Shown here one piece after another: positions 20,606 through 28,089 of a stretch of DNA of 64,000 nucleotides; within the stretch, counting starts at the first letter, position 1, and each line of letters begins with the position of its first letter. The DNA is from an uncultured Chloroflexia bacterium (lineage in GTDB: Bacteria > Chloroflexota > Limnocylindria > Limnocylindrales > CSP1-4): NCBI GenBank assembly GCA_963809045.1, contig CAWEHW010000004.1:331816-395815 (forward strand). Direction: 5' to 3'. Made by a program: the position numbers and the translations under genes. Under the pieces are notes generated by a model. It was not told the origin of the DNA and ran no database searches. It worked only from the letters and a program-made list of their open reading frames with translations.

Positions 20606-21307
20606 ATGGCCCAGGACGAGTACGCCGAGATCGATCTCGCAGCGCTGTCCGACGACGAGCTCACCGAGCAGATGCACAACGACCTCTACGACGGCATGGC
20701 CGCGGAGATCGTCGAAGGCACAAACATCCTGCTGGGTCGCGGCTGGTCGGCGTCGAGGGTTCTCGACGATGCTCTCGTGGCCGGCATGAAGATCGTGGGC
20801 ATCGACTTCCGCGACGGGATCCTGTTCGTGCCCGAGGTCCTGCTGGCCGCCAACGCCATGAAGGCCGGAATGGCGATCCTCCGCCCACTTCTCGCGGAAA
20901 CTGGCGCCGAACCCGTCGGCAAGGTCGTCATCGGCACGGTCAAGGGCGACATCCACGACATCGGCAAGAACCTCGTCGGGATGATGCTCGAGGGCGCCGG
21001 GTTCGAAGTCTTCGACCTCGGAATCAACACCGACGCCGACAAGTTCATCGCCGCGCTCGAGCTGCACAAGCCGGACATCCTCGGCATGTCGGCCCTGCTG
21101 ACGACGACTATGCCGTACATGAAGGTCGTCATCCAGACGTTGCGCGACCGCGGGATCCGGGACGACTACATCGTGCTCGTGGGCGGAGCGCCCTTGAACG
21201 AGGAGTTCGGGGCCGCCGTCGGGGCCGACGCCTACTGCCGGGACGCCGGCGTCGCCGCCGAGACCGCCCGACGCCTCATCGACGAGCGTCGAGCCAGTGC
21301 GGCCTGA
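20606..21307 (+). CDS. Corrinoid (cobalamin)-binding protein of a methyltransferase system (MtaC/MttC/MtgC-like)
   Basis: B12-binding DxHxxG motif GDIHDIGKN in a Rossmann-like domain, with an N-terminal helical cap. 233 aa. Confidence 0.85.
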   Translation: MAQDEYAEIDLAALSDDELTEQMHNDLYDGMAAEIVEGTNILLGRGWSASRVLDDALVAGMKIVGIDFRDGILFVPEVLLAANAMKAGMAILRPLLAETGAEPVGKVVIGTVKGDIHDIGKNLVGMMLEGAGFEVFDLGINTDADKFIAALELHKPDILGMSALLTTTMPYMKVVIQTLRDRGIRDDYIVLVGGAPLNEEFGAAVGADAYCRDAGVAAETARRLIDERRASAA

Positions 21308-22214
21308 ACGGGCCTATTCGCCGGCTGCCCGCGCGTCCGACGCGCCAGATCCGTCGCGTGTCCTGGTCATCGGCTGTGGTGCGCTCGCACGCGAGCTCGT
21401 CGCGGTCATCGACCAGGCAGGCCTGACCAACGTGGACCTGACCTGCCTTCCCGCGACGCTGCATAACCGCCCAGGCGGGATCCCCGCCGCCGTGCGGGCG
21501 AAGATCCGCGCCGCCCGGCCGCGCTACGAGAAGATCTTCATCGCCTACGCAGATTGCGGAACCGGCGGGCTGCTTGACGTCGCGCTCGCCGACGAAGGCG
21601 TGGAGCGCCTCCCGGGCGCCCACTGCTACGAGTTCTTCTCGGGCGCTCGCGACTTCGCCGCGATGACCGATGACGACCCGGCCACCTTCTTCCTGACCGA
21701 TTTCCTCGCCCGCAACTTCGATCGGCTGGTCATTGTCGGGCTCGGCCTCGACCGACATCCAGAGCTGCTGTCGACCTACTTCGGCAACTACCACCGCCTC
21801 GTCTACCTGGCCCAGACGGACGACCCGGCGCTCGTCGCGGCCGCCCGCCGTGCCGCGCGACGCCTCGGGCTGGCATTCGAGCTGCGCAGGACGGGGTATG
21901 GCGATCTTGCGACGTCCATCGCAGTCGCATCCGAAGCAGGGCGCGAGCGTCGTTCAACGGACATCGCGGCGCTTGCGGCAGGCGCACGAATCGTCGCCGG
22001 GACGTCACCGGGTGCCCCGAAAACGTTCAAATCCTTGCACCGAGTGAACCGTCAGGATCTCGCCCCCACCTTGACGGCCCAAGTCGTGCGGTCGACGCAA
22101 CGCCAGAATCGTGAGGAGCGGTCGAGGGGATCATCCGTGCGTCCGATGCACGGCCGACCGAGGAACGTGCAGCCCGTGCACGAAATTGACGCAACGGCGG
22201 CGGAGACCGCCTGA
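21297..22214 (+). CDS. Conserved uncharacterised protein, possibly DUF1638 family, associated with corrinoid methyltransferase clusters
   Basis: 305 aa, overlaps the corrinoid protein gene by 11 nt. The family assignment is from memory and not verified. Confidence 0.5.
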   Translation: MRPERAYSPAARASDAPDPSRVLVIGCGALARELVAVIDQAGLTNVDLTCLPATLHNRPGGIPAAVRAKIRAARPRYEKIFIAYADCGTGGLLDVALADEGVERLPGAHCYEFFSGARDFAAMTDDDPATFFLTDFLARNFDRLVIVGLGLDRHPELLSTYFGNYHRLVYLAQTDDPALVAAARRAARRLGLAFELRRTGYGDLATSIAVASEAGRERRSTDIAALAAGARIVAGTSPGAPKTFKSLHRVNRQDLAPTLTAQVVRSTQRQNREERSRGSSVRPMHGRPRNVQPVHEIDATAAETA

Positions 22215-22552
22215 TGGGCACCCTGTCGATCATCTGGTGGCGCGACATCCCGGCCCAGGTCGTCGCCAAGGACGCCCGCCGATCCAGCAAGGTCGTCCTC
22301 CACCCCCGGTTCCAGGTCGCGATCGACAAGGCAGCGAACCGGGCGGGCAAACGCGCATACAACGACTACATCGGCGAATGGCGGAAGACCCAGGAGCGGT
22401 GCGACGACGATCTCGAGGCGGTGGCGCGAGCCGAGTCTGCTCGCCTCGAGGCCGAGTACACCAAGCACCGACTCGCCGAGCTGATCCAGTCGGGTGGCAT
22501 CGCGGGAGGTCCGGTTCTCCCGCCCGCAACGTCCGAGACGTCGCCGACATGA
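22214..22552 (+). CDS. Small hypothetical protein within the methyltransferase operon
   Basis: 112-aa ORF whose start overlaps the upstream stop (TGATG). Confidence 0.45.
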   Translation: MGTLSIIWWRDIPAQVVAKDARRSSKVVLHPRFQVAIDKAANRAGKRAYNDYIGEWRKTQERCDDDLEAVARAESARLEAEYTKHRLAELIQSGGIAGGPVLPPATSETSPT

Positions 22553-27184: not shown

Positions 27185-27186
27185 CC

Positions 27187-28089
27187 GTGCTCTTCCGGCG
27201 CCGACGCTCGCTCTCGGATGCACAGGCCGATGCACTTGCACGTGTCCTGCAGGCGCCGACGTTCGAGCTGATCCCGCTCAAGCACTCGATGGACCAGGCG
27301 GCGCTGCTGCCCGCCGGATCGACGGTGTCCGTCACCGCGTCTCCCGCGAAAGGGATCGAAGCCACGATTGCGCTGTGTGAGCAGCTGCAGGCGCACGGTT
27401 TCCGGGCCGTGCCGCACGTCTCGGCCCGGATGGTGCGCGACCGCGCCCACCTCGCCGACCTGATCGGCTGGCTCGAAGCCGCCGGGGTCGATCGCGCGTT
27501 CGTCGTGGGTGGCGATGCGAAGGAACCCGGCAGGTATCCGGACGGACTGTCCCTGTTGCGCGAGATGGCCGAGATCGGGCACCCGCTGAGCGAGATCGGG
27601 ATCCCCGGCTACCCGCAGGGGCACGCGTTCATCGCGGACGCACCGCTCCTGGAGGCGCTGCGCGCCAAGGCCGAGTTCGCGAGCTACATCACCACCCAGC
27701 TGTGCTTCGATCCTGCGGCCATCTCGAGCTGGATCAGCGCTCGTCGGGCGGAAGGGATCGCCCTGCCGGTTCATGTCGGGCTGCCCGGCGTCGCCGAGCC
27801 GCAGAAGCTCCTGACGATTGCCGCGCGGATCGGTGTCGCCGACACCCATCGGTTCCTGGTCAAGAACGTCCGGTTCGTCACCCGGCTGATCCGCTCGGGT
27901 GGCTTCTACCGGCCCGATGGCCTGCTCGAGGGCCTGGCGGTGCCGGCCGCCGATCCCTCGATGGGGATAAGCGGGCTCCACATCTACACGTTCAATGCCG
28001 TCGAGGCGACGGAGAATTGGCGACGGTCGACGCTGGCAGCTCTTGCGCGCCACGATCGAGATCGAGCCCTGGTGGCCACCCGGCAGTGA
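27187..28089 (+). CDS. metF: Methylenetetrahydrofolate reductase (MetF family)
   Basis: GTG start 3 nt after the mttB stop. MetF-family TIM barrel of about 300 aa. Confidence 0.75.
   Translation: MLFRRRRSLSDAQADALARVLQAPTFELIPLKHSMDQAALLPAGSTVSVTASPAKGIEATIALCEQLQAHGFRAVPHVSARMVRDRAHLADLIGWLEAAGVDRAFVVGGDAKEPGRYPDGLSLLREMAEIGHPLSEIGIPGYPQGHAFIADAPLLEALRAKAEFASYITTQLCFDPAAISSWISARRAEGIALPVHVGLPGVAEPQKLLTIAARIGVADTHRFLVKNVRFVTRLIRSGGFYRPDGLLEGLAVPAADPSMGISGLHIYTFNAVEATENWRRSTLAALARHDRDRALVATRQ

Follow-up and report, generated by a model that had tools for sequence, protein, structure and literature searches.

A predicted cobalamin-dependent glycine betaine methyl-transfer operon, probably under IclR control, in an uncultured Chloroflexota bacterium

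The osmolyte glycine betaine can be demethylated by systems that depend on cobalamin (vitamin B12), and the present study examines a candidate of this kind in a 64,000-nucleotide stretch of DNA, here called the window, from an uncultured Chloroflexota bacterium (Limnocylindria; Limnocylindrales; CSP1-4; GenBank assembly GCA_963809045.1, contig CAWEHW010000004.1, positions 331,816 to 395,815). Seven genes at 20606-28089 of the window and a divergently encoded IclR-family regulator probably constitute an IclR-controlled, 'aerobic-type' glycine betaine:tetrahydrofolate (THF) methyl-transfer system. One glycine betaine:THF system, composed of MtgB, MtgC and MtgA, is that of Desulfitobacterium hafniense, reportedly described by Ticak in 2014. 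In Eubacterium limosum, the MttB-family enzymes MtpB, MtcB, MtyB and MthB, which contain no pyrrolysine (Pyl), operate with MtqC, MtqA and RamQ and demethylate acidic quaternary amines, the methyl group passing to the corrinoid protein and on to THF (PMC12155760). The betaine site of D. hafniense MtgB has been defined by mutagenesis and a ligand-bound structure, which assign cation-pi contacts to Y97 and F356 and carboxylate binding to R312 and H348 (Picking et al. 2026, PMC13080624). Fitness profiling in Phaeobacter identified a split methionine synthase consisting of a corrinoid protein, a pterin-binding protein, a RamA-like ferredoxin/DUF4445 protein and a DUF1638 protein, the last of which is required for its function (Price et al. 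2018, PMC5764234). In Ruegeria pomeroyi, knockouts of MtgC and MtgD abolish growth on glycine betaine, and PF06253 proteins (MtgB), MetF2, RamA and DUF1638 are induced on this substrate; in Sinorhizobium meliloti all of these genes lie together in one cluster (Mausz et al. 2025, PMC12478193). An earlier note on this DNA regarded such modules as best characterised in anaerobic Firmicutes, a premise made outdated by this genetic and proteomic work on aerobic Phaeobacter and Ruegeria and by the mapping in S. meliloti (PMC5764234, PMC12478193). The system has already been described in aerobic Proteobacteria (2018-2025), and the window holds a Chloroflexota member with some variant features, namely a single operon probably under IclR control, a MetF2 resembling S6MTHFR, a probable Tyr/Trp substrate pocket and a frameshifted activase.

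Pfam and NCBIfam scans of the window proteins confirmed every gene that had been listed earlier as a co-directional, mostly overlapping set of seven, all of them tightly packed on the + strand, and the guanine-plus-cytosine (GC) content of 0.68-0.71 measured in the operon region agrees with the approximately 70% previously given (65-71% across the whole window). The genes encode, in operon order, a cobalamin-binding (corrinoid) protein of 233 aa (mtgC, 20606-21307), a DUF1638 protein (21297-22214; PF07796, 95.6 bits), a small PF13769 'Virulence_fact' protein of 112 aa (22214-22552; 69.3 bits), a pterin-binding TIM-barrel methyl-THF:corrinoid methyltransferase of 301 aa (mtgD, 22549-23454; PF00809), a RACo/RamA-like ATP-dependent reductive activase (23465-25646; 726 aa if repaired, two frames as sequenced), an MtgB-like MttB-superfamily substrate:corrinoid methyltransferase of 512 aa (25646-27184; PF06253) and a divergent MetF2-like methylenetetrahydrofolate reductase (MTHFR) of 300 aa (27187-28089), which scores 29.8 bits against PF02219 (cutoff 24). 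The six junctions comprise, in the same order, overlaps of 11 nt, 1 nt and 4 nt (ATGA), a 10-nt gap, a 1-nt overlap and a 2-nt gap, given corrected starts at ATG 22549 for mtgD and GTG 27187 for metF2. MtgC combines PF02607 (B12-binding_2) with PF02310 (B12-binding) and carries the motif DIHDIG at residue 115, in line with the DxHxxG corrinoid protein recognised earlier; it scores under the cutoffs of the anaerobe-type MtgC models of NCBIfam. The MttB homolog covers the entire PF06253 profile (1-500 of 500) with 761.6 bits and no internal stop, which bears out its family membership. MtgD had been called MtrH-like: its description as a pterin-binding methyl-THF:corrinoid methyltransferase stands (366.5 bits against NF005719, the model for methyl-THF:corrinoid/iron-sulfur protein methyltransferases, cutoff 259), but it scores only 25.3 bits against the MtrH-family model NF002142 (cutoff 287) and is a MetH/AcsE-type enzyme rather than MtrH.

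Six of the seven operon proteins are 46-72% identical to counterparts in the S. meliloti cluster cited by Mausz et al. 2025 (PMC12478193), which encodes an ASKHA protein, a methyl-THF cobalamin methyltransferase, MTHFR and MTHFR_C, a 'virulence factor', DUF1638, a cobalamin-binding protein, a 'trimethylamine methyltransferase family protein', bmt (MtgE) and a glycine betaine/proline ABC transporter. Identities are 72% for MtgC with the cobalamin-binding protein, 66% for MtgD with the 'methyltetrahydrofolate cobalamin methyltransferase', 66% for the MttB homolog, 58% for DUF1638, 55% for the activase with the ASKHA protein and 46% for the PF13769 protein. The record carrying this cluster (CP090106.1; PLSDB) is labelled 'S. 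meliloti pSymB' at a length of 3.7 Mb and looks like a mislabelled chromosome; the chromosome is where we would assume a cluster for betaine demethylation with bmt (MtgE) to lie in S. meliloti.

In a scan with one genome per species, the MttB homolog had at least 595 relatives, of which the 80 best loci were retrieved for comparison. The closest relatives are metagenome-assembled genomes (MAGs) of Chloroflexota/'Limnocylindrales', with 78-91% identity; Gaiellales, Acidimicrobiia and other Actinomycetota come next at 70-78%, and Proteobacteria after them at 67-72%. Based on tblastn, the order MtgC-DUF1638-PF13769-MtgD-RACo-MttB-MetF2, with IclR divergent at its head, is kept in approximately 30 Chloroflexota and Actinomycetota loci, and the same families are present in rearranged order in Proteobacteria. 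The genes belong together, the same set recurring in the same order across two phyla. The earlier reading of a methyl-transfer chain that depends on a corrinoid protein and centres on a non-Pyl enzyme of the MttB family is supported. At the nucleotide level, the five closest complete loci resemble the window (75-82%) only over 19768-28037, which comprises the IclR gene and the operon, with no synteny beyond. The top protein match (P0001; the short ENA contig k141_2544580, 944-2809, locus L082) is a 621-aa MttB homolog with a 109-aa internal tandem duplication, which is probably a short-read assembly artefact, making P0001 uninformative.

The IclR-family regulator (249 aa; HTH_IclR and IclR_C) is encoded divergently from the operon at 19765-20514 on the - strand, its start at ATG 20514 (MSRVQSIERAF) being deduced from translation, and orthologs with 50-74% identity occupy the same divergent position in 16 loci. 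A sigma-70-like site, TGGACA-17-TAGATT (20508-20536, +), is a candidate promoter of the mtgC operon by consensus match only; it is the only promoter-like site in 20300-28400, where 0.3 are expected, and its -10-like hexamer is kept as TAGATT, TACGCT or TACATT in relatives. Directly downstream lies a 33-bp tandem operator-like element, TTCCATCATACGGCA-CGG-TTCCGCATCGTGGAA (20551-20583, +; 23-55 bp upstream of the mtgC ATG), made up of two adjacent palindromes of 15-17 bp, one imperfect and one near-perfect. The composite pattern has one match in the window against 0.00 expected, and with zero mismatches it occurs a single time, upstream of mtgC, in each of 11 loci. All 16 loci that have a divergent IclR gene (Chloroflexota and Actinomycetota) carry one or both half-elements ahead of mtgC, and loci without IclR carry neither there. 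A DNA operator is favoured over an RNA element because of the tandem-palindrome form and this strict co-occurrence, and 20551-20583 is therefore best described as a putative IclR operator. The suggestion that the divergent IclR protein regulates the operon gains support from this conserved site, to which the protein would presumably bind.

The earlier note held that the substrate of the MttB homolog could not be read from sequence. This appears too pessimistic, since three lines of evidence, namely orthology, the residues of the binding site and the gene neighbourhood of the orthologs, favour glycine betaine as the likely, if unproven, substrate. The best structural matches of the protein are 4YYC (732 bits, 65% identity) and D. 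hafniense MtgB (2QNE/9YCE; 415 bits, 45% identity over the full length), whose activity as a glycine betaine methyltransferase is biochemically proven. The 4YYC protein, which we take to come from S. meliloti, contains an unknown ligand and was deposited as a 'putative trimethylamine methyltransferase', and a literature search on 4YYC found nothing. In an alignment of the window protein with 4YYC and the 80 orthologs, Y128, R342 and H378, equivalent to Y97, R312 and H348 of D. hafniense MtgB, are invariant. An invariant tryptophan (Trp382) stands at the I352 position, midway (i+4, i-4) between the positions of H348 and F356, and from this i/i+4/i+8 spacing we infer that Trp382 may replace the phenylalanine of the aromatic pair. 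Open reading frames (ORFs) flanking the 80 loci within 8 kb were clustered and the cluster representatives checked by Pfam. The flanks include a dimethylglycine dehydrogenase (DMGDH)-like gene with the architecture DAO-FAO_M-GCV_T-GCV_T_C in 26 of the 80 loci, a GbdR-like AraC/DJ-1 regulator in 11, the sarcosine oxidase subunits SoxB in eight and SoxG in seven, a GMC (choline-dehydrogenase-like) oxidoreductase and EtfA in seven each, formate-THF ligase in six and a DgcB-like Fe-S protein in five, a setting that supports betaine as the predicted substrate; none of these eight families occurs in the 64 kb of the window itself.

The best match of MetF2 in the PDB is the methyl-THF-oxidising S6MTHFR of Sphingobium (7XG9, 121.6 bits), as against approximately 29 bits for canonical MTHFRs. 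MTHFRs of type 4 have been defined as partners of THF-dependent demethylases (Yu et al. 2025, PMC11868366). The type-4 residues examined were those of loop b2-a3 (Leu48/Pro49), helix a8 (Phe215/Cys219) and loop b8-a11 (Pro268/Phe269) in the 7XG9 alignment, with the numbering checked on Glu21, Asp107 and Gln175; equivalents of these three catalytic residues and of Pro49 and Phe269 are kept in MetF2, and Leu48, Phe215, Cys219 and Pro268 are changed. Membership of type 4 and a methyl-THF-oxidising direction are accordingly predicted rather than demonstrated properties of this enzyme. The metF2 gene sits downstream of mttB in the Chloroflexota and Actinomycetota loci. MetF2 does not resemble the MTHFR encoded in the S. 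meliloti cluster; there, as in 12 Proteobacterial loci, an MTHFR and MTHFR_C pair unrelated to it is present, so that the module exists in two architectural variants.

Combining these observations, we propose the following scheme. The MtgB-like enzyme would bind glycine betaine with Arg342 and His378 holding the carboxylate and Tyr128, probably together with Trp382, holding the quaternary nitrogen; one methyl group would pass to Co(I) on MtgC with release of dimethylglycine. MtgD would then transfer the methyl group from methyl-Co(III)-MtgC to THF, and MetF2 would convert methyl-THF to methylene-THF for one-carbon (C1) oxidation or assimilation, or methyl-THF could alternatively feed MetH. MtgC that had fallen to Co(II) would be re-reduced by the RACo-type activase through its [2Fe-2S] and ATP-dependent ASKHA domains with the assistance of DUF1638, the PF13769 protein would serve as a conserved accessory, and IclR would probably act as a repressor at the paired palindromes that directly follow the promoter until relieved by an effector, for which betaine or a pathway product is our guess. 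Several points weigh against this scheme. The F356 position is an invariant glycine (G386) throughout the binding-site alignment, so the aromatic pair formed by Y97 and F356 is incomplete and Trp382 enters only as a presumed substitute; no member of the exact clade of the window protein has been assayed, and the assignment of R. pomeroyi MtgB rests on proteomics (PMC12478193). Dimethylglycine and sarcosine genes, a betaine transporter and MtgE are all absent from the 64-kb window. The type-4 'oxidising' residues of MetF2 are only partly kept, with Leu48 replaced by Ser, Phe215 and Cys219 by Ile and Pro268 by Thr, and the activase gene is frameshifted as sequenced.

The frameshift bears on whether the module works at all in this organism, since an activase gene interrupted as sequenced means that the system may be inactive here. 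It also qualifies two earlier statements: the module cannot be called complete as it stands, and the activase has all of its domains but not as a single intact ORF. The N-terminal 2Fe-2S part (23465 to approximately 23909) matches positions 2-91 of AcsV and lies in a different frame from the middle and ASKHA part (23907-25646), which matches AcsV from position 137 on and contains Raco_middle (170 bits) and RACo_C_ter (289 bits). The junction alignment locates one extra 'a' at 23910 (ACGC[A]CGCC), absent from five orthologs, and its deletion restores the sequence ...VEVTPPELASP... and a 726-aa protein with Cys48, Cys54, Cys57 and Cys102. The activase is closer to AcsV (319 bits) than to RamA (87 bits), and a low-complexity insert, DDSKAGGDSKAGSGSKAGSGSKA, at approximately 24846-24923 inside the ASKHA domain is missing from nucleotide alignments with relatives. 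The extra base is either a real mutation or an assembly error, and exact-sequence look-ups of the window MttB homolog and MtgD returned no second assembly on record. Were the mutation real, the locus would be a recent pseudogene cluster with an inactive or split activase, decaying in this organism. We regard this as unlikely, though a serious prospect, given the absence of the insertion from the five orthologs and the presence in the same window of a second single-base-type frameshift, which splits a zinc-type alcohol dehydrogenase over two frames (17517-18688), and of gene remnants, among them a DctM reduced to its C-terminal half and fragments of an IclR gene and a citrate synthase gene. Set against this, the remaining six genes of the operon are undamaged, as are its promoter and operator, and all are highly conserved (MtgC and MtgD are 97% and 92% identical to those of L001, a relative with 87% identity in the MttB homolog), and a lone-base insertion is also typical of long-read assembly error, the best relatives being long-read MAGs. 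In the alcohol dehydrogenase, ADH_N falls in 17517-18410 and the C-terminal ADH_zinc_N in 18329-18688, with the frame switch near 18330-18410. The remnants occupy 7834-9725 and 14382-14927; DctM follows DctP and DctQ and covers positions 197-413 of its 413-position profile, the truncated IclR protein covers 3-87 of the 174 positions of IclR_C and the citrate synthase fragment covers profile positions 199-355 only, which suggests that this region is decaying or affected by assembly problems.

If the module is functional, the same machinery could still act on another methylated amine, such as a different betaine, a choline derivative or a similar compound, with the MttB homolog demethylating that amine in place of glycine betaine. 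The replacement of F356 of the D. hafniense motif by glycine, with a tryptophan nearby, leaves room for this, as MttB-family enzymes that differ in specificity differ in the aromatic pair (PMC13080624). Up to seven PF06253 paralogs with unassigned substrates are often found in genomes that encode MtgC and MtgD (PMC12478193), and the window contains no dimethylglycine catabolic genes. The equivalents of Y97, R312 and H348 are nevertheless invariant, the full-length identity to D. hafniense MtgB is 45%, the DMGDH-like gene is within 8 kb in 26/80 loci, sarcosine oxidase subunits and GbdR-like regulators are likewise encoded in the vicinity of orthologs, and the S. meliloti ortholog lies inside a cluster assigned to betaine demethylation. 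Another amine as the substrate therefore appears doubtful, and glycine betaine is retained as the likely one.

A further proposal is that the Chloroflexota/Actinomycetota operon is a distinct variant in which DUF1638, as a metal or Fe-S redox or loading partner of RACo, and a PF13769 adaptor are obligatory, and in which the Tyr/Trp pocket specifies a non-betaine substrate; we consider this combination rather unlikely. The DUF1638 partner role would operate through Cys27, Cys87, Cys110, His56 and His109, which are invariant or nearly so in 42 orthologs from three phyla and hint at a possible metal site. The DUF1638 domain spans approximately residues 20-206 and is followed by a variable, low-complexity C-terminal tail. 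An AlphaFold2 (AF2) model of the protein (predicted local distance difference test, pLDDT, 72.4) has a generic alpha/beta fold with no meaningful fold match (best E-value 2e-3, template modelling score approximately 0.3). DUF1638 homologs come in two length classes, a short one of approximately 215-240 aa and a long one of approximately 295-375 aa, and the long tail, encoded here by 21930-22214, is rich in Arg, Ser and Thr and not conserved at the nucleotide level. The PF13769 gene is present in 44 of the 80 ortholog loci as well as in the S. meliloti cluster, and the protein goes unmentioned in Mausz et al. 2025 (PMC12478193). It is a conserved, unstudied component, with a confident AF2 model (pLDDT 92.6) yet no Foldseek match in the PDB at E<=0.001.

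The main role of the operon might instead be biosynthetic, with MtgC, MtgD, RACo and DUF1638 forming a split cobalamin-dependent methionine synthase in which MtgD runs from methyl-THF to cobalamin. Phaeobacter inhibens and R. pomeroyi need these four components to make methionine (PMC5764234, PMC12478193). No homocysteine-binding module (PF02574, MtgE) is found in the operon or the window, however, and the operon includes a substrate methyltransferase and MetF2. Directly after the operon of L001 (10600-16472), genes encode a YitJ-like fusion of homocysteine S-methyltransferase and MTHFR and a complete five-domain MetH with its own activation domain. The full MetH beside the L001 operon argues that this lineage has no need of MtgC and MtgD for a methionine synthase, which makes a biosynthetic main role improbable; methyl-THF from the operon more likely enters C1 metabolism, MetH included. 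A trimethylamine methyltransferase system for (anaerobic) methylotrophy, as suggested by sources naming homologs 'trimethylamine--corrinoid protein Co-methyltransferase' and by MAG surveys counting such genes as mttB (PMC11264602), was rejected as highly improbable: the ORF is uninterrupted with no in-frame UAG, as had been noted earlier, Pyl334 of Methanosarcina barkeri MttB aligns with a sense codon for Leu347 (also a leucine, Leu317, in D. hafniense MtgB), the score against TIGR02369, the sole MttB-type NCBIfam model matched, is 253 bits against a cutoff of 525, and the Pyl-containing M. barkeri MttB (7XCL) gives a partial match of 96 bits as against 415-732 bits for non-Pyl proteins.

Beyond the operon, a cobalt transporter of the energy-coupling factor (ECF) type, CbiM-CbiN(PDGLE)-CbiQ-CbiO, is encoded convergently at 28265-30993 on the - strand (Pfam CbiM, PDGLE, CbiQ and ABC_tran). 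The CbiMNQO genes adjoin the operon in none of the 80 related loci; this adjacency is specific to the window, and the genes are context outside the conserved module. The CbiQ frame extends 5' of its first canonical start (29781) with a typical CbiQ N-terminal sequence. An Rfam scan of the whole window detected no cobalamin riboswitch or any other Rfam family, and no intrinsic-terminator-like site was found within 20300-28400. Elsewhere in the window, a second ECF-type module at 47563-49349 (-) comprises a CbiQ-like T component and a weak match to an ECF S component, and genes for a ThiF protein with a rhodanese domain, a ThiS-like protein, a PALP enzyme and a prokaryotic JAB protein stand in a row at 40996-44254 (+), an arrangement that in our view resembles the mycobacterial CysO/CysM/Mec/MoeZ cluster for sulfur-carrier cysteine biosynthesis. 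A 776-aa ORF at 38085-40415 (-) has a strong coding signal (GC3 0.86) without a Pfam match, and a DUF6777 protein is encoded nearby at 34536-36299 (-).

B12-dependent glycine betaine demethylation, recently demonstrated in marine Proteobacteria, seems to occur widely and with strong conservation in soil lineages that are abundant, including Limnocylindria-like Chloroflexota, Gaiellales and Acidimicrobiia, in which the system is packaged as a single operon, probably regulated by IclR. This would link osmolyte turnover in soil to the supply of cobalt and cobalamin, a cobalt transporter adjoining the operon in the present case. The annotation 'trimethylamine methyltransferase' is misleading for this MttB clade, and the anaerobic methylotrophy read from such genes in MAG surveys is not supported here (PMC11264602). 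DUF1638 and PF13769 are conserved components of unstudied function and are targets for biochemistry.

The window operon can be compared with several known systems. M. barkeri MttB/MttC/RamA shares the superfamily PF06253 and the logic of a corrinoid relay, whereas the window operon has no pyrrolysine, only partial and weak similarity (96 bits), THF rather than coenzyme M as the presumed acceptor and a RACo-type activase with an N-terminal [2Fe-2S] domain. The E. limosum enzymes MtpB, MtcB, MtyB and MthB conserve the R312-equivalent arginine, as does the window MttB homolog, but lack the Y97/F356 aromatic pair, of which the window protein retains the tyrosine (PMC13080624). D. hafniense MtgB/MtgC/MtgA has in common with the window an MttB-family TIM barrel at 45% identity, Y97, R312 and H348 kept, leucine at the Pyl position and a three-component relay to THF; the window differs in having glycine for F356, tryptophan at the I352 position, an MtgC below the anaerobe-model cutoffs and a THF methyltransferase of the MetH/AcsE type (PF00809). 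The split methionine synthase of P. inhibens has in common with the window the corrinoid protein, the pterin-binding protein, the RamA-like activase with ferredoxin and DUF4445/ASKHA domains and DUF1638. The window operon lacks a homocysteine-binding subunit and has a substrate methyltransferase and MetF2 in addition, differences that suggest a catabolic function. The same logic applies to S6MTHFR of Sphingobium lignivorans SYK-6, in that a demethylase makes methyl-THF and the MTHFR oxidises it. The MtgBCD/MetF2/RamA/DUF1638 system of aerobic Proteobacteria uses the same protein families as the window operon for every step, with the reservations that the activase is split here as sequenced and that the MTHFR is of another kind. 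Unlike the S. meliloti cluster, the window operon has no MtgE nearby and its host belongs to the Chloroflexota; its MTHFR is a single-subunit, S6MTHFR-like protein in contrast to the MTHFR and MTHFR_C pair of the S. meliloti and Proteobacterial clusters, and it forms one compact operon with a divergent IclR gene and an operator-like site, whereas Proteobacterial loci have a GbdR-like AraC regulator (11/80 loci).

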